From: an uncultured Candidatus Babeliaceae bacterium
GTDB lineage: Bacteria; Babelota; Babeliae; Babelales; Babelaceae
NCBI GenBank assembly: GCA_963704655.1
Contig: OY969927.1
Location: forward strand, 416,001-480,000
Length of the DNA stretch: 64,000 nt
Direction of reading: 5' to 3'
Part shown: positions 33,235 through 59,434 of the stretch, piece by piece
Position numbering within the stretch: the stretch's first letter is position 1
How the letters are laid out: every line of letters begins with the position of its first letter
Program-made: the position numbers and the translations under genes
The notes under the pieces: generated by a model
What the model was told of the DNA's origin: nothing
Databases searched by the model: none
The model's input: only the letters and a program-made list of their open reading frames with translations

Positions 33235-33488
33235 TTGCATATTTTGATTCTTTTGACTAGATTTAACATCGATAATGAAGATCAGCTTTAGCCTAAGAAA
33301 TAAAAATTTAGAAAAAGGAAAGGAGGCATTCAGTAATCATCCCTTATTCCACCAAGTTCTACTTATGCAACGTCTTGACGACGTTGATTGTATGAGGCTT
33401 TAGGTGCCTAATACCGTGAGTTTTAATCTCACAACGTGTATTACACGTACTTTTTTTTGGTTGTTATCTTTTTAAAAGGAGTACTTTG
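33235..33488 (+). promoter_or_regulatory. Promoter and structured 5' leader of paralog 2
   Basis: TTGCAT-17-TAGATT; orphan GAAAGGAGG at 33318-33326; consecutive hairpins; AAGGAG RBS. Confidence 0.55.
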
Positions 33489-35627
33489 ATGAAACAACTT
33501 TCGCGAATATTTTTAACCCTGGCACTTTTGGTGCCTGCTGTTGCTCTTGCAGACAACTGTAATAGTTGCGCAACAACAACAAACAATTGCAACACCAGTT
33601 GCAATACCAGCTGTAACAACTCTTGCAATACAACATGTAATAACAGCTGCGATAACAGCTGTAACCAATCATGCTGTTTCAATTCATGCACCACAAGTGT
33701 ATGTAACACAAGCTGTGAAAGTAGCTGCTACTGCCCTACTGTGTTCATTAAACGTCCAACATACGATAACACTGTTATCGCTTACGGACTAGAATATCAA
33801 CACCGTTATGACATGGACCAAGTATACGGCGGCATCCAATTGGCTTTCGAATACCAACGTTCATTCAACGGAGCTAACCTTGCACGCGGAATGTTTGGTA
33901 GCAATGTGTTAAACTTTGCCGGTAGCCAAGTAGCTAATCCAGCTGCAAACTCATTGTTAGCTGACAACTTTGGTCTTTCACAAGACTTCCAAGGAAGCAT
34001 TGCTCTTAAACCGCTCATCCAAGATTTCAACCTCCATTTCGATTGGTTCGTTGGACTTGATGAATGGGCACCAGGGCTTTATCTGCAACTTGATATGAAC
34101 TTTGATTATCAAAAACGTCAATTACAATATGATTGCGCATGCACTTCAGTTACCACAACAGGCGCTCCATTCCCTGCTGGTTACATGAACGCATCAACAT
34201 CTGTTGTAGCACCTATTACAGATATCCCAACAGCACTTGGTTTACAAAGTACATTTGGTGACAAGAAATCTGCAGGAACCTTTGGTCGTTTTGATTTCTG
34301 TGACAGAACAGAAAGCGGACTTGCTGGTCTTTCTTTAAACCTTGGTTATGATTTTGTACGTTGTGATGACTACTTCTTGGGAGCATTCTTCCGTGTTGTA
34401 GCTCCAACAGGTAGCAGCGTAAAACCTTGCTACGTCTTTGATGCTATTGTCGGTAACGGCAAGGGCTGGGAAGTCGGTGCCGGTATTTCTAGCCGTTGGG
34501 AAATGTGGAACAACAATGATTGTCAAAAACTTACCGCAATGCTTGATGGTTATGTAACATCAGTATTAAAACACCATTCATTACGCACCTTTGACCTTGC
34601 ATCTACAAACACTGCACTTGCTGTAGATTATACCTGTGTTAATAGCTGCAATAACAGCTGTAACAATAGCTGTAACACAAGCTGTAACAATTCTTGCAAC
34701 ACTGGCTGTTCTGTTAATAGCTGCAATACTGGCTGCAGTATGTCTAGCTGTAACACTGGCTGTTCAACAAGCTGCAACAACAGCTGTAACAATTCTTGCA
34801 ACTCATGCAATGCTCAAAACTGCTTAACACGTTACAACTTATTGAAACAATACAGCGTCAACAACGGTGTTTATACATACGCAAACAACCTCATTACTGC
34901 TGCTGATTTCACCACACGTAATGTTGAAGTACGCACCCCAGTTAAAGGTGATGCTACTTTACGTTTAGTGTATACACATGGCGGATTTGACCTTGGATTT
35001 GGTTACAACGTCTTTGGTATGGTTCGTGAAAAAATCTCATCTGTTGGTGGCGCAAGCAGCTGCTTGTTCACAGTAACAGGTACACAATTTGCGGTTAAAG
35101 GTTGCCAAGGTGTAGCGTATAATAGCTATGCTGTTACCAGCGGCTTAATAGATGCTGGCGCTCCATTTACATCAGAACCATTGATCAACTCTTCTAGCAA
35201 ATCAACAGCATATGTTTCAGGAAGCTGTGGATCTGCATGTGTTACACCTGATTATCCAGTTACTATTGGAAGCACAGTTGATGCATTTAATGTAGCCTAT
35301 AATAGTAATGCCAACAATTCACAAATTGTAGGTGGTGCTTCAGTAGCAGACTTAGAAGCTGCTGCAAACTTTGTTGCTCCACAAGCATCTTTAGTTGGTT
35401 CAACACAGAAACTTGTAACATTACAAGGCGATGTTAATGAATTGGATCTTTGCTCAGGCACAGCTCCACGTCAATTCAGCAACAAAGGTTTCGTGTCGTT
35501 GGATTACACATGGGTTGATAACGATTGGGCTCCATACTTAGGCTTCATCGCTGAAGTTGAAGGTGGCTCACGCAACCTCGATCTCGCTCAATGGGGTATT
35601 GTGATAAGAGGCGGAGTCTCTTACTAA
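33489..35627 (+). CDS. Cys-rich putative outer-membrane protein, array paralog 2
   Basis: Signal peptide ending ALA; two tracts of 16 Cys each in CNNS/CNTS repeats; ends WGIVIRGGVSY. Confidence 0.85.
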   Translation: MKQLSRIFLTLALLVPAVALADNCNSCATTTNNCNTSCNTSCNNSCNTTCNNSCDNSCNQSCCFNSCTTSVCNTSCESSCYCPTVFIKRPTYDNTVIAYGLEYQHRYDMDQVYGGIQLAFEYQRSFNGANLARGMFGSNVLNFAGSQVANPAANSLLADNFGLSQDFQGSIALKPLIQDFNLHFDWFVGLDEWAPGLYLQLDMNFDYQKRQLQYDCACTSVTTTGAPFPAGYMNASTSVVAPITDIPTALGLQSTFGDKKSAGTFGRFDFCDRTESGLAGLSLNLGYDFVRCDDYFLGAFFRVVAPTGSSVKPCYVFDAIVGNGKGWEVGAGISSRWEMWNNNDCQKLTAMLDGYVTSVLKHHSLRTFDLASTNTALAVDYTCVNSCNNSCNNSCNTSCNNSCNTGCSVNSCNTGCSMSSCNTGCSTSCNNSCNNSCNSCNAQNCLTRYNLLKQYSVNNGVYTYANNLITAADFTTRNVEVRTPVKGDATLRLVYTHGGFDLGFGYNVFGMVREKISSVGGASSCLFTVTGTQFAVKGCQGVAYNSYAVTSGLIDAGAPFTSEPLINSSSKSTAYVSGSCGSACVTPDYPVTIGSTVDAFNVAYNSNANNSQIVGGASVADLEAAANFVAPQASLVGSTQKLVTLQGDVNELDLCSGTAPRQFSNKGFVSLDYTWVDNDWAPYLGFIAEVEGGSRNLDLAQWGIVIRGGVSY

Positions 35628-35694
35628 AGACACCATAAGCGTAAGCGTTTAATTTTTTTAAACGTTGATCGCATTAAAAACTCGAACTAACACT

Positions 35695-35732
35695 AAAAGG
35701 GAGGCGGAATTATCCGCCTCCCTTTTTTTTTT
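35695..35732 (+). terminator. Intrinsic terminator
   Basis: AAAAGGGAGGCGGA-ATTA-TCCGCCTCCCTTTT followed by a long T run. Confidence 0.9.
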
Positions 35733-35756
35733 ATTAACTTTCGATCTATAATCACA

Positions 35757-35864
35757 AACGAGTAGTCACCATATATCGGCATAATTGCTGAAGTTGAAGG
35801 TGGCACACGTAACACTAATGTTGCGCAATGGGGTCTTGTAGTATGAGGCGGAGTCTCTTACTAA
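35757..35864 (+). pseudogene. 3'-end relic of a fifth OMP paralog
   Basis: NE*SPYIGIIAEVEGGTRNTNVAQWGLVV*GGVSY* matches the paralog 3 C-terminus, with two nonsense changes. Confidence 0.9.
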
Positions 35865-35890
35865 CAAACTTTTAAATTCGAACACAGAAT

Positions 35891-35930
35891 AAAAAAGGAG
35901 CGGCGAAATTATCTGCTGCTCTTTTTTTTT
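35891..35930 (+). terminator. Terminator of the relic paralog
   Basis: AAAAAAGGAGCGGCGA-AATTA-TCTGCTGCTC followed by a T run; a decayed copy of 35695. Confidence 0.65.
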
Positions 35931-36068
35931 ATTAACTTTCGTTCTATAATCACAAACAAAAGAAAGGAGGCCTTGCATAATTCACCTCACTTAAATTAAA
36001 ATTCTATGTAGCGCGTCACAAGGACGTTAATGTTATTAGTTGTTAACTACTTAAAAGGAGTATCTTTA

Positions 36069-38228
36069 ATGAAGCAACTTTCCCGAATATTTTTATCACT
36101 TGCACTTTTGGTGCCAGCACTTGCTGTTGCAGACAACTGCAACTCAACAAGCAGCTGTGCTACCGTTTGCAATAACACTACGTGTAACAACAGTTGCAAT
36201 AATAGCTGCACAAACAAAGTAAGTTGCAATGTTAGCAGTTGTGAAAACAGCTGTAACCAATCATGCTGCTTTAATTCATGCGCAACAAGCGTATGTAACA
36301 CCAGCTGTGACAATGTCTGCGGATGCCCAACACTGCTGATAAAACGGCCAACCTACGATAATACCGTTATTTACTACGGCCTTGATTACCAACACCAATA
36401 TGACAAATGCGAATTTTACGGCGGGTTCCAAGTAGCGTTTGAATATCAACGTTCATTTAACCCAAACAACCTTGCACGTGGCATGTTTGGTAGCACCGTA
36501 TTAAACTTTGCAGGTAGCCAAGTAGCTAACCCTACTCCAAACTCATTGCTTGCAGACAACTTTGGTCTTCCAACAAACTTTGTCGGCAGCATCGCCCTTA
36601 AACCAGTTATTTCAGATTTCAATATGCATTTAGACTGGTTCTTTGGATTTGATAAATGGGCACCGGGCCTTTTCATGCAAGTTGATATGAACTACGATTA
36701 TCAAACACGCGAATTGACCTCAGAATGCGCTTGTGAATTTAACTACACAACAAGCACCGTTTTATTCCCTGCTGGTTATATGAACGCAACAACTACACCG
36801 GTGTACCCAATTTTAGACCTTCAAACCGCACTCGGTTTACAAGGTACTTTTGGTGACAAAAACAGCGCATCACAATACGGACGTTTTGACTTTGGCAATA
36901 GAACAAAAAGCGGACTCGCTGGTCTTTCTATAAACCTTGGTTATGATTTTGTACGTCTTGAAGATTACTTCTTGGGCGCATTCTTCCGTGTGGTTGCTCC
37001 AACAGGAAGCAAAGTACAACCATGCTATGTCTTTGATGCTCTTGTCGGTAACGGCAGAGGTTGGGAAGTCGGTGCCGGTCTTTCTAGCCGTTGGGAAATG
37101 TGGAACAACAACGACTGTCAAAAACTCACCGCAATGCTTGATGGTTATGTAACGTCGGTATTAAAACACCATTCATTACGCACATTTGACCTTGCAACTA
37201 CCAACACTGCACTAAGACGTGATTACACCTGTGCAAATAATTGCAGCAATAGCTGTAATAACAGCTGTAACACAAACTGCAACAATAGTTGTAATAATAG
37301 CTGTAACAATTCTTGCAATACTGGCTGTTCTGTTTCTAGCTGTAACACTGCTTGCAGCGTTGCTAGCTGTAACACTGGTTGCAACAGCAATAACAGCTGT
37401 AACAATGATTGCAATGGCTGCAATGCTCAAAACTGCTTAACACGTTATTCATTATTGAAAGAATTTAGCCTCAATAATGGCGTGTACTCATATGCAAACA
37501 ACCTTATCACAGCTGCTGATTTCACTACACGTAATGTTGAAGTTCGTACACCGGTTAAAGGTGACGCTACAATACGTTTAGTCTATTCACATGGTGGATT
37601 TGACCTTGGATTTGGTTACAACGTCTTTGGTATGGTTCGTGAAAAAATCTCATCGGTAAGCGCACCTAGCAGCTGCATATTCACGACAACCAACTCTGTA
37701 TTTGGTATTAAAGGCTGCAATTGCGTTGCATATAATCAATATGTTGCTGATATTGACCACATAATCACATCAACCCCAGTCTCTTCTATACCATTACAAA
37801 GCACCGCAAGTTTAGCAACTGCTTATGTTTCTGGTAGTTGTGGTAATGCCTGTGTCACTGCAGATAATGCGGTTACGATACCAACATATGTCGAAATTCC
37901 TTCAACCAGCTATCTATACTACAATGCAGCATGCACAAGTGCAGTTCTTGCAGAAGGCACAAGTGTTGAAACCCTACCAGCAGATTATGTTCAACCTACA
38001 AACTCATCAACACCGGTGGTATTAAGTGGCACACCTAATGACTTAGATCTTTGTTCAGGAACAGCTCCACGCCAATTCACCAACAAAGGCTTTATCACTC
38101 TGGATTACGCATGGGTTGATAACGAATGGTCACCATATATCGGCGTTATCGCTGAAGTTGAAGGCGGCATACGCAACACAGATATCGCTCAATGGGGCGT
38201 AGTAATTAGAGGCGGAGTCTCTTACTAA
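36069..38228 (+). CDS. Cys-rich putative outer-membrane protein, array paralog 3
   Basis: AAGGAG RBS; near-identical leader to paralog 2; Cys tracts of 16 and 17 Cys; ends WGVVIRGGVSY. Confidence 0.85.
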   Translation: MKQLSRIFLSLALLVPALAVADNCNSTSSCATVCNNTTCNNSCNNSCTNKVSCNVSSCENSCNQSCCFNSCATSVCNTSCDNVCGCPTLLIKRPTYDNTVIYYGLDYQHQYDKCEFYGGFQVAFEYQRSFNPNNLARGMFGSTVLNFAGSQVANPTPNSLLADNFGLPTNFVGSIALKPVISDFNMHLDWFFGFDKWAPGLFMQVDMNYDYQTRELTSECACEFNYTTSTVLFPAGYMNATTTPVYPILDLQTALGLQGTFGDKNSASQYGRFDFGNRTKSGLAGLSINLGYDFVRLEDYFLGAFFRVVAPTGSKVQPCYVFDALVGNGRGWEVGAGLSSRWEMWNNNDCQKLTAMLDGYVTSVLKHHSLRTFDLATTNTALRRDYTCANNCSNSCNNSCNTNCNNSCNNSCNNSCNTGCSVSSCNTACSVASCNTGCNSNNSCNNDCNGCNAQNCLTRYSLLKEFSLNNGVYSYANNLITAADFTTRNVEVRTPVKGDATIRLVYSHGGFDLGFGYNVFGMVREKISSVSAPSSCIFTTTNSVFGIKGCNCVAYNQYVADIDHIITSTPVSSIPLQSTASLATAYVSGSCGNACVTADNAVTIPTYVEIPSTSYLYYNAACTSAVLAEGTSVETLPADYVQPTNSSTPVVLSGTPNDLDLCSGTAPRQFTNKGFITLDYAWVDNEWSPYIGVIAEVEGGIRNTDIAQWGVVIRGGVSY

Positions 38229-38260
38229 GCTAGTAATAGTTTGTATATCGAATTAACACT

Positions 38261-38293
38261 AAAAGAGAGGCGGAAAATTCCGCCTCTCTTTTT
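38261..38293 (+). terminator. Intrinsic terminator
   Basis: AAAAGAGAGGCGGAA...TTCCGCCTCTCTTTT. Confidence 0.85.
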
Positions 38294-45309: not shown

Positions 45310-45390
45310 TTATTTGACTGAGAGCCGCTGGCCGAGCATATTTTGTTCAAGTTTGCCCTCTATTTGTAGCTGCCAGAGGCGGCTTTATAA
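45310..45390 (-). pseudogene. Duplicated relic of the dprA 3' end
   Basis: L*SRLWQLQIEGKLEQNMLGQRLSVK* versus DprA LQERLWQLQIEGKLEQNVLGQWNTI*. Confidence 0.88.
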
Positions 45391-45397
45391 GATGCGA

Positions 45398-45757
45398 TTA
45401 ATGATAACAACGAATCATTGCCTCTTTTTTAATTTTTTCATAAAATTCTTCATCTAACGCGTCCCGAGTTTGTTTAAGCTCAAGAGCCGCTCGATCGAAA
45501 TTGCCCGTTAATCCAAGAATTCTTGCAAATAAAGAATTTTCATTATTCTCATAGTAATCATAAAAAGAGGCTGAAATTCCGTAAGAGCCTAAAATCGCCT
45601 TTTTAAAATAACTATAATTCGCTTCGTGTTCAATTTGCAGTATCTTAACAACTCGATCATCAAAAATAGGACCAGCTGCTTCCATTTCTTGTGCGTAAGA
45701 GATTTTTGTAGCGATACACATTAAAATTACGATAAGTTTTTTCATAGATAACATCAT
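45398..45757 (-). CDS. Hypothetical secreted protein, distant paralog of 44660-45274
   Basis: Signal peptide; AILGSYGI...FDRAAL. Confidence 0.65.
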   Translation of the reverse strand: MMLSMKKLIVILMCIATKISYAQEMEAAGPIFDDRVVKILQIEHEANYSYFKKAILGSYGISASFYDYYENNENSLFARILGLTGNFDRAALELKQTRDALDEEFYEKIKKEAMIRCYH

Positions 45758-45828
45758 ACCTTTGGTAAATATATGTAATATTATGCTTTAATTTTATGGT
45801 TATTCATCAATATTGTCTAGTTTCAATA

Positions 45829-47001
45829 CTAGATCGTGTTCCATTGGCCAAGCACATTTTGTTCAAGTTTGCCCTCAATTTGCAGCTGCCAGAGTCGCTC
45901 TTGAAGAGCATCATAGCTGAAACCTGCTTGCAGAAGCAAATCGTCGGTGCTTTTTGGGGTTATGCAGAGGGATAGAAGTGGATCAGTAGGTAATTCTTTT
46001 GCTTTCGGCGCGTAACCCTTCGACAGGCTCAGGATGAGCGGCGCCGCGGTTTCTGACTTTACTGGTGCACGGGATGTTTTTTGTATTACAGGAGCAGCTG
46101 GTAACGTTTTCGCTTGATGGCCAATCAGCTCAAAGATATCTTGGGATTTGGTAATTGGTCGTGCGCCGTGGACAAGAAGTTCATGGCACCCAGCGCTGAG
46201 TTCATTAAAGATTGAACCCGGAACCACGCCAACATCGCGCCCTTCATCAAGAGCATTACGTGCGGTTAATAACGCGCCGCTTTTAACCGCAGCTTGAATA
46301 ACAATGGTTGCAGAAGAAAGACCCGCTATAATGCGGTTCCGTGCGGGAAAATTGTGCGGCAATGGCTCAAAGTTTAAGGGAAATGAGCTCATAACAAGCC
46401 CGCCTGAATAGATTATCTCTTCAAATAGATTTTTATGTGCCCATGGATATAGCTTTAATAACCCAGAACCTAAAATCGCAACCGTTTTACCGCCTGCTTT
46501 AAGCGTTTCTCGATGTACCATGCCATCGATGCCAAGCGCCCCACCACTAATAGTAGTAAAACCCTCTTTTACAATATCAGGAATAAGCATTTGAGTAACC
46601 TGAGCACCATAATTATCTGCTTTTCGAGAACCAACAAATGCTAATGCTGGCGAAAGTTGTGCAAGTGAACCGCCCTGATAATACAGCACTGCAGGGGGTG
46701 TGTGAATATGGCGTAAAAGTTGTGGGTATTCTGGATCGAGTATCGTAACAACAGAAATCTTATGCTTTTCAATAAGCGTAAGCTCTTTATCAAGAAGTGC
46801 TTTATCTGCAAGCCCAGAAACAACTTTCTCACAAGTTGCCATGGGCAATTTGGCACGATTGCATAATTCATGTGCGTTAAGTATATAAAGCTCATGCAGA
46901 TTTCCAGCAAAAACTTGACTGAGCGTGGCGCAGGCTTGTGAGCCTACGCCATCGATTAATGACATATGTAATATAGTATGTGATGCAGAAACCTGATGCA
47001 T
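45829..47001 (-). CDS. dprA: DNA-processing protein DprA
   Basis: YPQLLRHI..PP.LY, VGSR, SGGALGIDG, FPARNRIIAGLS, SGALLTA. Confidence 0.95.
   Translation of the reverse strand: MHQVSASHTILHMSLIDGVGSQACATLSQVFAGNLHELYILNAHELCNRAKLPMATCEKVVSGLADKALLDKELTLIEKHKISVVTILDPEYPQLLRHIHTPPAVLYYQGGSLAQLSPALAFVGSRKADNYGAQVTQMLIPDIVKEGFTTISGGALGIDGMVHRETLKAGGKTVAILGSGLLKLYPWAHKNLFEEIIYSGGLVMSSFPLNFEPLPHNFPARNRIIAGLSSATIVIQAAVKSGALLTARNALDEGRDVGVVPGSIFNELSAGCHELLVHGARPITKSQDIFELIGHQAKTLPAAPVIQKTSRAPVKSETAAPLILSLSKGYAPKAKELPTDPLLSLCITPKSTDDLLLQAGFSYDALQERLWQLQIEGKLEQNVLGQWNTI
46016..46041. repeat. REP-like palindrome in frame within the dprA linker
   Basis: CCCTTCGACAGGCTCAGGATGAGCGG, closely matching intergenic CCCTTCGACTACGCTCAGGGCGAGCGG at 60990; read as PLILSLSKG. 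Confidence 0.8.
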
Positions 47002-56622: not shown

Positions 56623-57678
56623 ATGGTCAACGAACAATTCAATGGTAATATCGTTATCTTTCAGGCATTTGATGTGGGTGACGATATCAACTTCTCAAAA
56701 GTTCTTAATGAAAAAATGCTCCCGGTTTTACCGTCCCAGTATTCAAAATACTTTAAGAACTATCATATCCCGTTAACGGTGGCGCCTTCGTTACTTGACC
56801 CAAAAATTACCTGCAATAACGCCAAGTTGCATAATTTTGGTGTTATTACGCTCAGATATCAGATCCCTTTTAGTTCGACCTTTGAAGATTTAAAATCAGA
56901 AATTACTGCTATCGATACGCGTTATGAAACACAAAGTTTAAATGACGCGTTCTTTATTTTTAATAAAATTAAGGGCGCCGTTAAACAATCAAACTTTTTC
57001 CACTTACGTAAGTCGTATACGGTAATCCAAGTTAACCCACAACAAAAATATGATGTGGTAAATTTTAAAGATACGTTTGGCAGTATTATCGCCTCAACAC
57101 TGCGCTTTGAAACAGAGACACTGTCTGAATACCAAAAAAATGAGATCTTAGCATCTGCTTTTGGCTATTACCGTGGTGATCTTATTATTGTCGATACAGA
57201 AGCGGCATGCGTATATGACGACGAATATGAAGACATTTTGGAGCTCTTTGAGTTTGCCAATATGCAGCAGCTTGAATTACAGTATTTTGACCGCGTATTG
57301 GATAAACAGCTCAATACCGTGTATGAACGTCAAGTTAAAGCCCCGCCATTTCGGTCATATCTGCCCTTTATCTCTGCTACAGAAGGCGACCCAATTGGCG
57401 ACCTTGAAAAACTTAAAGTAGATATTTCAGTTATTACTGAAAGGCTTGAAAACAGTATCAAAGTTGCCGGCGAAGCTTATTATTCTGAACTGTACCAGCT
57501 TTTAACTGAAAAGCTTGATCTGCAAAATTGGAAAGAGTCTATTAACCGCAAGCTGTATATTATTCAGGATATTGCTACGGTGTACCAAAACAAAATTGAC
57601 GCCGTGCGTGGTGATATTTTATCAGTTGCGATTATTATCTTAATCGCCCTTGAACTGGTTATTTTGATTATTAAGTAA
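56623..57678 (+). CDS. Conserved hypothetical protein (RMD1/DUF155-like) with C-terminal TM
   Basis: AFDVG, EFANMQQLELQYFD..LD, hydrophobic tail IIILIALE. Confidence 0.7.
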   Translation: MVNEQFNGNIVIFQAFDVGDDINFSKVLNEKMLPVLPSQYSKYFKNYHIPLTVAPSLLDPKITCNNAKLHNFGVITLRYQIPFSSTFEDLKSEITAIDTRYETQSLNDAFFIFNKIKGAVKQSNFFHLRKSYTVIQVNPQQKYDVVNFKDTFGSIIASTLRFETETLSEYQKNEILASAFGYYRGDLIIVDTEAACVYDDEYEDILELFEFANMQQLELQYFDRVLDKQLNTVYERQVKAPPFRSYLPFISATEGDPIGDLEKLKVDISVITERLENSIKVAGEAYYSELYQLLTEKLDLQNWKESINRKLYIIQDIATVYQNKIDAVRGDILSVAIIILIALELVILIIK

Positions 57679-57757: not shown

Positions 57758-58297
57758 TTACTTCTTCTCGCACGTAAAAACTAAATGTCCCGGATAACCG
57801 CCTGAAAAGAATGGTTTAATTTTCTCATCGGTATAAAGTTTTGCATTCAGTGTCCCGCAAGCTTGACTTGCTAAAATATTAATCAAGCCTTCATTTTTTT
57901 TATCTATACCAGGCTTTAAAGGTTCTTGTGTAATAGCATAGAATTTATCAGCCACAGGCTGTATTACCCAGTTTATAGTTGAATCATTCGGATTGCTTGT
58001 CCAACGCGCAACTTTTAATTTTTGAAGCGGCTTTGCGGTAACCTTATTAGCAGAATCAATGCTTACCAATCCAGCACCAAATTGCGCACAGAGTGCACGC
58101 GCATCAGCTTCGGCCATATTTGGCTCCACCACATCAGACTTACTAAGCATCTTTACATGTGTATGATCGACTGTGATAGTAAACTGATCTCCTAACTGGG
58201 GCTGGAAATAATAATCTGCATTGTATACATCAGGCATACCACCAGCCTGCAAACCTACAGCTGCAAACGAACAGAGTAATAAAAATAACTTTTTCAC
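57758..58297 (-). CDS. Hypothetical secreted protein
   Basis: AGGAG RBS, GTG start, signal peptide ending LQA. Confidence 0.75.
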   Translation of the reverse strand: MKKLFLLLCSFAAVGLQAGGMPDVYNADYYFQPQLGDQFTITVDHTHVKMLSKSDVVEPNMAEADARALCAQFGAGLVSIDSANKVTAKPLQKLKVARWTSNPNDSTINWVIQPVADKFYAITQEPLKPGIDKKNEGLINILASQACGTLNAKLYTDEKIKPFFSGGYPGHLVFTCEKK

Positions 58298-58433
58298 AAC
58301 ATTCTCCTGAATTTATAAAATTAACACTATATATCTATAAATTCAGGTTAACAAAGAATATCGATAAAAATCAAGAGTTTTAATATAAGAGATAATTGAT
58401 TTTATATTAAAAACTTAAACAAAATTATTATAT

Positions 58434-58478
58434 TTACTCATAAACAGCGACTTTTGCCGGGCGGAGGATCACTGTCCC
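58434..58478 (-). pseudogene. Recoded duplicate of the grpE 3' end
   Basis: Encodes GTVILRPAKVAVYE* exactly as 58985-59029 does, with 5 third-position differences. Confidence 0.92.
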
Positions 58479-58484
58479 CTCAAT

Positions 58485-58612
58485 CCGTGCACCCTGAGTG
58501 TTCACCGCAGGTGAATGTATCGAAGGGTCGGCATTTAATTTTATATGACTTCCGCTATCCTTCGATACATTCTACTTCGCTAAAGCTTCGTAGAACACTC
58601 AGGATGCACGGG
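58485..58612. repeat. Inverted pair of REP-like palindromes downstream of the GIY-YIG gene
   Basis: CCGTGCACCCTGAGTGTT...AATGTATCGAAGGG and its inverse CCTTCGATACATT...AACACTCAGGATGCACGG. Confidence 0.88.
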
Positions 58613-58900
58613 ATCACAGAATTTCTTTTTGGCGTACTCCGTAAGCAACTTAAAATCCCCTGTAATAAGTGCTTCTTTTTTCTTTCGGGTCCACCCTTTT
58701 AATTTTTGCTCAAGCTTAAAAGCTTCAGTGCGCTCTTCTAACGCTGCATGAAAAACTAATGTAACAGGCAATCTTGTTGAGGTATATCCGCAAATCATCT
58801 TATTTTGATGGTCTATAACACGCTTTTCAAGATCATCAGTTTGTCCAACATAATAAGAATCATCACTGCACTTTAAAATATAAACATAAAAATATTTCAT
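58580..58900 (-). CDS. GIY-YIG nuclease, UPF0213/YhbQ-like
   Basis: YVYILKCSDDSYYVGQTDDLEKRVIDH...LEQKLKGWTRKKKEALI; the stop codon lies inside a palindrome. Confidence 0.92.
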   Translation of the reverse strand: MKYFYVYILKCSDDSYYVGQTDDLEKRVIDHQNKMICGYTSTRLPVTLVFHAALEERTEAFKLEQKLKGWTRKKKEALITGDFKLLTEYAKKKFCDPVHPECSTKL

Positions 58901-58923
58901 ATAACTTGTTAGACATTAATAAT

Positions 58924-58975
58924 CGCTATCCTTCGATACATTCCCCCGCTGGGGGAACACTCAGGATGCACGGGG
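58924..58975. repeat. REP-like palindrome upstream of the GIY-YIG gene
   Basis: CGCTATCCTTCGATACATT-CCCCCGCTGGGGG-AACACTCAGGATGCACGG, a direct repeat of the 58554 copy with a different loop. Confidence 0.88.
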
Positions 58976-58984
58976 ATGGGGAAT

Positions 58985-59434
58985 TTATTCATAAACAGCG
59001 ACTTTAGCAGGGCGCAGGATAACTGTCCCCATGCGATAGCCTTTTTGCAATACCTGTGCAATAGCGCCAGAAACAGCCCCTTCAACTAACGGCGTTTGCA
59101 TAATCGCTTCATGTAAATTTGGGTCAAACTGGGTATTTTCGGTAATTTCAGTAACATTAAAGCGACTAAGTACCTTTTTAAATGCTTTATAGATAAGCTC
59201 AAATGCCGGGTTTGATATATCATGCTGTGCACGGTCAAAATCATCAACAATGTCGATCAATTGCGTCAAAACATCTGCTTGTGCAGCCTGTGACCACTGG
59301 CCACGTTGAGCTTCCATGCGCTTTCTATAGTTATCAAAATCAGCCTGCAAATAGGCATATTGTTGCCTACAGCGCACTAATTCGTCGTTATCGCGCACAA
59401 CTGTTTCTTGGTTAAGATTATTATTTTCTTCCAT
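58985..59434 (-). CDS. grpE: Nucleotide exchange factor GrpE
   Basis: LQADFDNYRKR, DDFDRA, FDPNLHEAI, QKGY...ILRPAKV. Confidence 0.95.
   Translation of the reverse strand: MEENNNLNQETVVRDNDELVRCRQQYAYLQADFDNYRKRMEAQRGQWSQAAQADVLTQLIDIVDDFDRAQHDISNPAFELIYKAFKKVLSRFNVTEITENTQFDPNLHEAIMQTPLVEGAVSGAIAQVLQKGYRMGTVILRPAKVAVYE

Follow-up and report, generated by a model that had tools for sequence, protein, structure and literature searches.

The grpE gene of an uncultured Candidatus Babeliaceae bacterium is followed by a small GIY-YIG nuclease gene framed by hairpin repeats, and then by a second, slightly different copy of its own 3' end. This raises the question whether these parts form a single mobile unit, and whether the nuclease has anything to do with the duplicated gene end. 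The window, i.e. the whole stretch of DNA analysed here, comprises 64,000 nucleotides (G000:C1:416001-480000, in which G000 is the source genome of 1.30 Mb with 38% G+C). Along its minus strand the order is grpE, hairpin 1, GIY-YIG ORF, hairpin 2, inverted hairpin 3 and second grpE end, each at the position given in an earlier account made from the letters alone (the sequence-only reading). The features are listed below in window coordinates; L141 is a metagenome contig with a related cassette.

58985..59434, minus strand: grpE, the host gene (Pfam GrpE PF01025, E 8e-31)
58983..59030, minus strand: live copy of a 48-nt direct repeat, the grpE end (direct repeat and comparison with relatives)
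58924..58975, minus strand: hairpin repeat 1, long-loop subtype, 5' end toward grpE (ssDNA fold)
58580..58900, minus strand: single-domain GIY-YIG nuclease gene (PF01541, E 1e-14; 106-aa ORF)
58553..58613, minus strand: hairpin repeat 2, oriented as repeat 1 (sequence and ssDNA fold)
58483..58532, plus strand: hairpin repeat 3, inverted, 5' end outward (91.5% identity over 71 nt to the third repeat of L141)
58480..58481, no strand: putative recombination joint, where the resemblance to the L141 cassette stops (blastn and global alignment)
58432..58479, minus strand: orphan, presumed second allele of the grpE end (5 silent differences from the live copy)
57758..58297, minus strand: 179-aa ORF without a Pfam family (ORF list and profile search)

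Orthologues of grpE are present in 41 of 41 related genomes, and the 3' end that is expressed consists of the gene's last 45 nt. The 179-aa ORF beyond the second copy has a signal-peptide-like start (as read by eye); G003, G005 and L141 have no counterpart of it between grpE and the gene that follows. Contigs from public runs, which may include the source sample, span the junction at 58329-58526 with zero differences. A joint skipping the cassette was found in none of the contigs from four of nine listed public runs, a result to which the patchy cover gives no evidential weight.

The nuclease consists of the catalytic domain alone (under 150 aa, with the catalytic Tyr/Tyr/Glu present), and its residues Y7, Y17, R27, H31 and E64 align with those of SsnA and YazA. 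An NCBIfam search assigned no family to it. The sequence-only reading had described a 106-aa gene ending inside the second palindrome: the ORF is indeed as described, but its last 12 residues are read-through into repeat 2. Because the relative in L141 stops at KKKF, ahead of the repeat, the native length is about 94 aa.

Five paralogues are encoded in the source genome (at E 1e-21 or below; an internal stop interrupts one of them), and around each of them lies an inverted pair of a single repeat subtype with the 5' ends outward. Within the phylum homologues occur in 81 of 261 genomes, patchily and often in multiple copies. Relatives are also seen in Bacteroidota, Zixibacteria, Alphaproteobacteria, cyanobacteria and others, and the near matches include named Dependentiae records. 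Whether copies of the nuclease carry flanking palindromes had been named as a test in the sequence-only reading: among 190 homologous loci, 178 have both flanks, with a repeat at 158 and an inward pair at 101 of them (14 and 0, respectively, with shuffled flanks; grpE loci used as a control have a repeat in 2 of 29 cases). All 20 genomes with at least 30 repeats encode the nuclease, as do 43 of the 59 with at least 10 (kin among these genomes are not independent). A KKxF-type protein tail accompanies long-loop repeats in 26 of 29 cases, against 3 of 31 for short-loop repeats; the loop-type label clusters on the nuclease tree, which indicates co-inheritance only. Overall, the nuclease is mobile-looking: multi-copy, non-syntenic, patchy, and enclosed by hairpins that belong to a non-autonomous family of dispersed repeats.

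The repeat unit is an oriented hairpin with the core nnnGAGy...TCGAnnn, in which the two nnn triplets pair. In the phylum it reads CCGYTCRY-nnn-GAGY, a variable inner stem and TCGA-nnn, whereas outside the phylum it begins with TGTCA. Folded as ssDNA, each of the three units at grpE has two internal loops (-9.3 kcal/mol for repeat 1). Full pairing of the triplets is found in 198 of 242 distinct units, selected by their anchors without a pairing rule, and in 91 of the 117 non-CCT units (shuffle mean 21, maximum 34). Both this stem covariation and the co-occurrence of the nuclease with dispersed repeats are thus shown. We count 110 strict units in the source genome, where the long-loop pattern has 33 matches, against 0 in each of three shuffles; a simple pattern occurs in 116 of 261 genomes of the phylum (reversed control 0). 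The six further window sites that had been assigned to the family (11569, 23766, 53102, 46016, 50876 and 60990) all contain such repeats, two of them degenerate (23766 and 53102). At 5 of 11 mapped orthologous sites the subtype differs between the source genome and a relative. Flanks mapped at 11 of 24 loci, where the intergenic DNA of filled and empty pairs was too diverged for insertion boundaries to be read. A short-loop unit at window positions 46013-46040 (minus strand) lies in frame within the coding region of dprA, comparable to the protein-coding palindromes of Rickettsia.

A link between GIY-YIG genes and REP-like flanks has been published for the Ssn family (PMC11893778). Ssn proteins are cd10448 members whose genes have SRM hairpins on their flanks; they cleave ssDNA upstream of the hairpin, at a distance of a few bases, and the authors remark on the IS-like layout (Chenal et al. 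2025, PMC11893778). The window cassette is like Ssn with its NTS/SRM in having a single-domain GIY-YIG protein of about 95 aa, oriented hairpins on both sides that are also dispersed, and alignable catalytic residues; it differs in its hairpin, whose internal loop is GAG/TCGA and whose second stem varies. None of 190 family loci shows the SRM pattern, nor does the window cassette, whereas 4 of 5 Ssn loci, the positive control, do. In a 39-row tree (98 columns, 20 family rows sampled, long YhbQ branch) the Ssn rows group at 99/95 and the YazA/YhbQ rows, separately, at 100/99. Placement of the window protein within Ssn is rejected (p-AU 0.028), its union with YazA/YhbQ is not (p-AU 0.16, over the same 98 columns and long branch), and monophyly of the nuclease family gives p-AU 0.33 (with its 20 sampled rows). 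By blastp the N. gonorrhoeae homologue, a stand-in for N. meningitidis SsnA, is matched at E 1e-8 in a proteome-sized database, weaker than the E below 1e-10 used for Ssn. We take the stand-in sequences to be cd10448 and cd10456, labels that are also backed by SRM flanks. Since the window protein falls outside Ssn in the tree and the SRM motif is lacking, the window family is, by the available tests, Ssn-like in layout and not a member of Ssn; it appears to be a sister family, with a bulged hairpin peculiar to it.

The best solved-structure matches are YhbQ/YazA proteins of UPF0213 (1ZG2, E 8e-12; 1YWL, E 2.5e-10), which score 56-65 bits against 34-45 bits for Ssn. The genomic setting is nevertheless different: in all three annotated records YazA is flanked by trmNF and rsmI, and none of 5 YazA loci carries repeats, whereas the window family has five paralogues, many sites and flanking repeats. 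A search for YhbQ homologues returned enterobacterial near-copies only, and scanning viral contigs for Ssn-like and YhbQ-like stand-ins gave nothing usable.

The TGTCA start outside the phylum resembles the CGTC/TGTC tag of CGTC-tagged REPs (PMC3733652), and head-to-head dimers are common, as in those REPs and in REP/RAYT units. The CGTC families are described with 8-9 bp stems and 4-5 nt loops (PMC3733652) and may include related units. The partner of REP/RAYT units is an HUH transposase, whereas that of the window repeat is a GIY-YIG protein: no HUH (Y1) transposase, the enzyme that defines a RAYT (PMC11893778, Discussion), lies between the window repeats, where PF01541 is the sole domain detected. 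GIY-YIG is unmentioned in the available text of PMC3733652 and PMC12306157. In a literature search that covered few subscription journals, only the Ssn paper proved relevant to the nuclease family or its repeat, and the nuclease/hairpin family is apparently undescribed.

Other GIY-YIG genes of the source genome are also found beside hairpins. A third group (G000:C1:231555-231749, about 81 aa) lies 3' of another hairpin (GTCCG...GCGAAG type) behind a tRNA gene, and the same pairing is seen in L499, L505, L507-L509, L511-L513, L516 and L517. A truncated Ssn-like gene at G000:C1:303600-303900 lies between hairpins of a further type (GACCCTGA...TCAGGGT).

The duplicated grpE end itself is a direct repeat of 48 nt (58432-58479 against 58983-59030) with 5 mismatches; its coding part, counting the stop, is 45 nt long. 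All five differences are silent third-position changes, as had been noted from the sequence. With 12.7 synonymous sites in the 45 nt, the chance of such a pattern is 0.002 if the spare copy alone mutates or 0.016 if both do. In L141 the same three-repeat cassette, with a nuclease gene 83% identical to that of the window, follows a grpE end and precedes the same downstream gene. There is no grpE copy after repeat 3 in L141, and its resemblance to the window ends at 58481, 4-5 nt beyond the 5' end of repeat 3. On this comparison, the grpE copy is best regarded as no part of the element. The silent bias and L141 thus bear out the claim that the copy did not arise as a target-site duplication now decaying neutrally. 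No clean microhomology is visible at the 58480 joint.

The grpE end that precedes the L141 cassette is likewise an orphan and follows an unrelated ORF. Of the 5 diagnostic sites, the live end in the window agrees with G004, the closest relative, at 3; where L141 is informative, at 3 sites, the spare end has its third-position letter every time. Over the 45 positions G004 is identical to the live copy at 37 and to the spare copy at 35, and other species are even or lean slightly toward the spare, the five sites being near saturation. The cassette is absent from grpE in all five other species of the genus, though G004 has a decayed lone repeat behind the gene. Given these matches of the live and spare ends, and the decayed repeat in G004, the cassette may have been resident, with the spare end and the 179-aa ORF incoming. 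Between the window and L141 (window 57558-57678, L141:1526-1646) the last 75 nt of the convergent gene differ at one base and the following 54 at ten, hinting at another gene-end exchange here.

The sequence-only reading had proposed that a recoded grpE end is carried along against cleavage by the nuclease itself, i.e. that a free-standing homing endonuclease cuts the unrecoded grpE end and brings an immune one. In fungal mORF hybrids (Glomus atp6, atp9, cox2 and nad3; Allomyces atp6) an endonuclease gene is preceded by a foreign in-frame gene end while the other end is displaced downstream (PMC3630166, PMC4019555), and the window locus has the same anatomy, with one gene end before the nuclease and the other behind it. 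The related L141 cassette also lies behind grpE, and a prfA insert, discussed below, recurs at one site in two species. The hybrids are interpreted as homing endonucleases acting on ORF-less alleles, however, whereas the window family has no fixed target gene: it is found behind acpP, dprA, typA, recJ, a pseudouridine synthase and a PilB-like ATPase, and grpE adjoins the nuclease at only 2 of 270 fetched loci. Moreover, hairpins frame the gene here, a like arrangement occurs around lone hairpins and around unrelated cargo without any nuclease, the protein has no domain besides the catalytic one, and L141 lacks a displaced end downstream. Homing is therefore hardly credible as an explanation, and the proposed role of the recoded end has to be given up. 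A grpE-specific form of homing is ruled out by the diversity of loci.

Duplicated gene ends are not confined to nuclease loci. A control lies within the window itself:

45329..45894, minus strand: dprA control locus, with end copies at 45845-45894 and 45329-45378 around a 119-aa cargo ORF

Neither a hairpin nor a nuclease is present at this locus, and its two copies differ by 3 silent changes and 1 replacement. Scanning 1,372 ORF ends of the source genome yielded 52 matches, of which 23 were retained by hand as orphan copies (a few of them doubtful) and 29 were discarded as tandem paralogues, low complexity or weak. A family repeat is absent from 17 of the 23 (26 silent, 17 replacement changes) and contained in 6 (10 silent, 1 replacement); under the more lenient model the silent excess over neutral has P 5e-4 and 3e-4, respectively. 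The repeat-free ends include uvrB (with a degenerate repeat directly behind its live end), an FtsW/RodA-family gene, a PALP enzyme, bamA and an ATP synthase alpha/beta subunit. The duplicated grpE end is consequently generic and ordinary for this genome; the sequence-only reading had itself named generic recombination, as at dprA, as the outcome that would undo its proposal, and this is what was found. Gene-end duplication is not reported in the main text of the Ssn paper (PMC11893778).

The cargo at dprA and about 16 other sites of the source genome consists of single ORFs beside orphan core-gene 3' ends (450-1200 nt); many of these ORFs have signal-peptide-like starts, no integrase was seen among them, and the ends show silent bias. 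Tandem paralogues with Cys/Asn/Ser-rich repeats occupy window positions 33472-38293, with an orphan 3' fragment containing a premature stop between them (35765-35864).

Because the silent bias exceeds the neutral expectation in both sets of orphan ends, the simplest reading is that the copies are two alleles, each selected in a working gene, which would have been joined by one-sided recombination. A true transposon whose long, variable target-site duplications decayed later would account for the outward-facing inverted ends, for identical duplicates such as the 22-nt ones at prfA and at the PilB-like gene, and for the cross-locus controls. A flanking direct repeat scoring at least 16 occurs at 18 of 214 nuclease elements (several of the 18 being tandem-repeat artefacts) and at 10 of 374 repeat-only elements, against 0 of 375 across loci and 4 of 435 in repeat-free intergenic DNA. 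Yet a duplicate is seen at under 10% of elements and is lacking in L141, its length varies from 15 to about 80 nt, and in repeat-linked cases silent changes outnumber replacements by 10:1 (P 3e-4 or smaller). We consider such a transposon very unlikely; as the origin of the duplicate, target-site duplication is ruled out by L141 together with the silent bias.

A joining of natural alleles has parallels in homology-facilitated illegitimate recombination (HFIR) of competent bacteria, which likewise has one homologous anchor and one non-homologous joint and is suppressed by RecJ, a 5'-to-3' ssDNA exonuclease (PMC3240628). HFIR products consist of a deletion with 3-10 bp microhomology (PMC3240628, Introduction), whereas the window-type product is a gene-end duplication of 15-60 nt, so that the name denotes a likeness only. 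Competence of the source genome is putative: its uptake genes include a ComEC domain (E 9e-25, 366-aa ORF), DprA (E 9e-71) and a PilB-like ATPase.

A connection between the nuclease and the duplication is left at the position of the joint. In the source genome, duplicated ends are only modestly enriched at repeats (6 of 132 against 17 of 1241, 3.4-fold, P 0.018), and in its six hairpin cases the spare copy starts 5, 5, 5 and 10 nt from the outward 5' end, with the others at 22 nt and far off. Among 1,114 ORF ends of the fetched loci (594 near a repeat) we obtained 26 matches, of which 20 were discarded (repeat-of-repeat, shadow frame, internal protein repeat or borderline) and six are true gene ends, with joints at 11 nt (typA), 5 (recJ), 7 (prfA), 13 (methyltransferase) and 68 (pseudouridine synthase), and one at the 3' end. 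Counting prfA once, there are 11 independent cases, in 7 of which the spare copy starts within 13 nt of the outward 5' end (baseline 0.10, P ~2e-5, with the 13-nt cut-off and the case lists fixed after seeing the data). Misfits make up 4 of the 12 hairpin cases: the pilB-like gene (22 nt), L062 (68 nt), one far off, and L074 (3' end). The low share of elements with a duplicate (under 10%) and the modest enrichment likewise speak against a link.

At recJ in L123 three allelic ends are present, and both spares begin at the same base, 4-5 nt from the hairpin 5' end. The prfA insert is common to the source genome and G004 and missing in four other species of the genus. Third positions of prfA are 66.5% identical between the two genomes, while each spare matches its own live gene at 22/22 and 19/20; since the spares follow their own gene despite this divergence, the spare copy has been refreshed.

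Several further arrangements of duplicated sequence were observed around hairpins. Behind the PilB-like gene (G000:C1:767552-767905) the nuclease frame crosses the downstream hairpin and terminates on the duplicated host end, so that this nuclease would carry the host's final residues. A lone repeat at G000:C1:54812-54901 lies between two 18-nt copies of a tRNA-Leu gene's 5' end (gene identified by eye), and the duplicate abuts the repeat's 3' end. Whole cassette flanks are duplicated, in tandem or nested, at L094, L131 and L160 of other genomes, which suggests recombination between hairpins. The GTCCG...GCGAAG-type hairpin alone forms two short inserts with duplicated ends, behind ORFs starting at G000 65066 and 953944.

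It might be argued that all of this is pure hitchhiking, with the nuclease acting as an Ssn-like restriction module for incoming ssDNA, or as a passive passenger, the duplication being generic and the joints lying near hairpins since folded ssDNA stalls exonucleases or strand exchange, and not through any cut by the nuclease. Most of the picked duplicated ends (17 of 23) indeed have no family repeat, the dprA control lies within the window, and in Neisseria the effect of SsnA on transformation is a decrease, not an increase (PMC11893778, Results). Likewise, all five short inserts of the source genome (39-66 nt) are a hairpin and little else, and whereas three of these are family repeats, two are another hairpin. 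By itself, this account leaves unexplained why 8 of 12 joints are on the 5' side when just 20 of 60 outermost repeats turn that end away from the upstream gene, and it does not cover the five subtype-matched cassettes or the subtype turnover at 5 of 11 sites. Hitchhiking alone therefore strikes us as unlikely, though well worth weighing.

We instead regard it as probable that a selfish hairpin cassette and natural grpE alleles were brought together by one-sided recombination. The cassette would be selfish and small, consisting of one GIY-YIG gene enclosed by inverted bulged hairpins with the 5' ends outward. The two grpE ends would be natural alleles from related lineages, with selection on the respective grpE keeping the changes silent, and the alleles would be united through homology on one side and a non-homologous joint on the other, a process that seems common in this genome and would need no nuclease. 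DNA from relatives was presumably taken up.

The nuclease itself is predicted, with fair confidence, to cut ssDNA a few bases 5' of its hairpin, because SsnA cuts in this way. The sequence-only reading's other suggestion, that the protein acts on its own hairpins, is accordingly plausible. The joint on the hairpin side is the surviving link between nuclease and duplication, and the nuclease may supply the free end. It is conceivable, at somewhat less than even weight, that at hairpins the cut supplies this end, leaving the joint 5-13 nt off, and that the cassette or a lone hairpin hitchhikes with a conserved gene during uptake. Speculatively, the cut fragment would have the hairpin at its 5' end and the homologous gene at its 3' end, the gene would invade and the hairpin would be joined; given the inverted ends, either strand would serve.

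More tentatively still, and in our view with less chance of being right, the family might be a mobile element without a transposase: a 94-residue nuclease would cut incoming ssDNA 5' of the outward hairpin, and host recombination would anchor the fragment by a conserved gene. The cassette or a lone hairpin would then land behind that gene while the donor allele replaces the gene end, and the leftover end could serve as a short second arm by which the insert invades empty alleles of other species.

The available text of PMC11893778 leaves two questions open, namely the mobility of repeat-flanked GIY-YIG genes and the means by which their repeats spread. The locus provides a second nuclease/hairpin family, outside Ssn, extending over Dependentiae, Bacteroidota, Alphaproteobacteria, cyanobacteria and others. 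Its subtype-matched repeats are candidates for new ssDNA-cutting specificities, and the mapped joints predict a cut 4-13 nt 5' of the hairpin. If true, the transposase-free reading would account for the spread of CGTC-like repeats for which no transposase is known.
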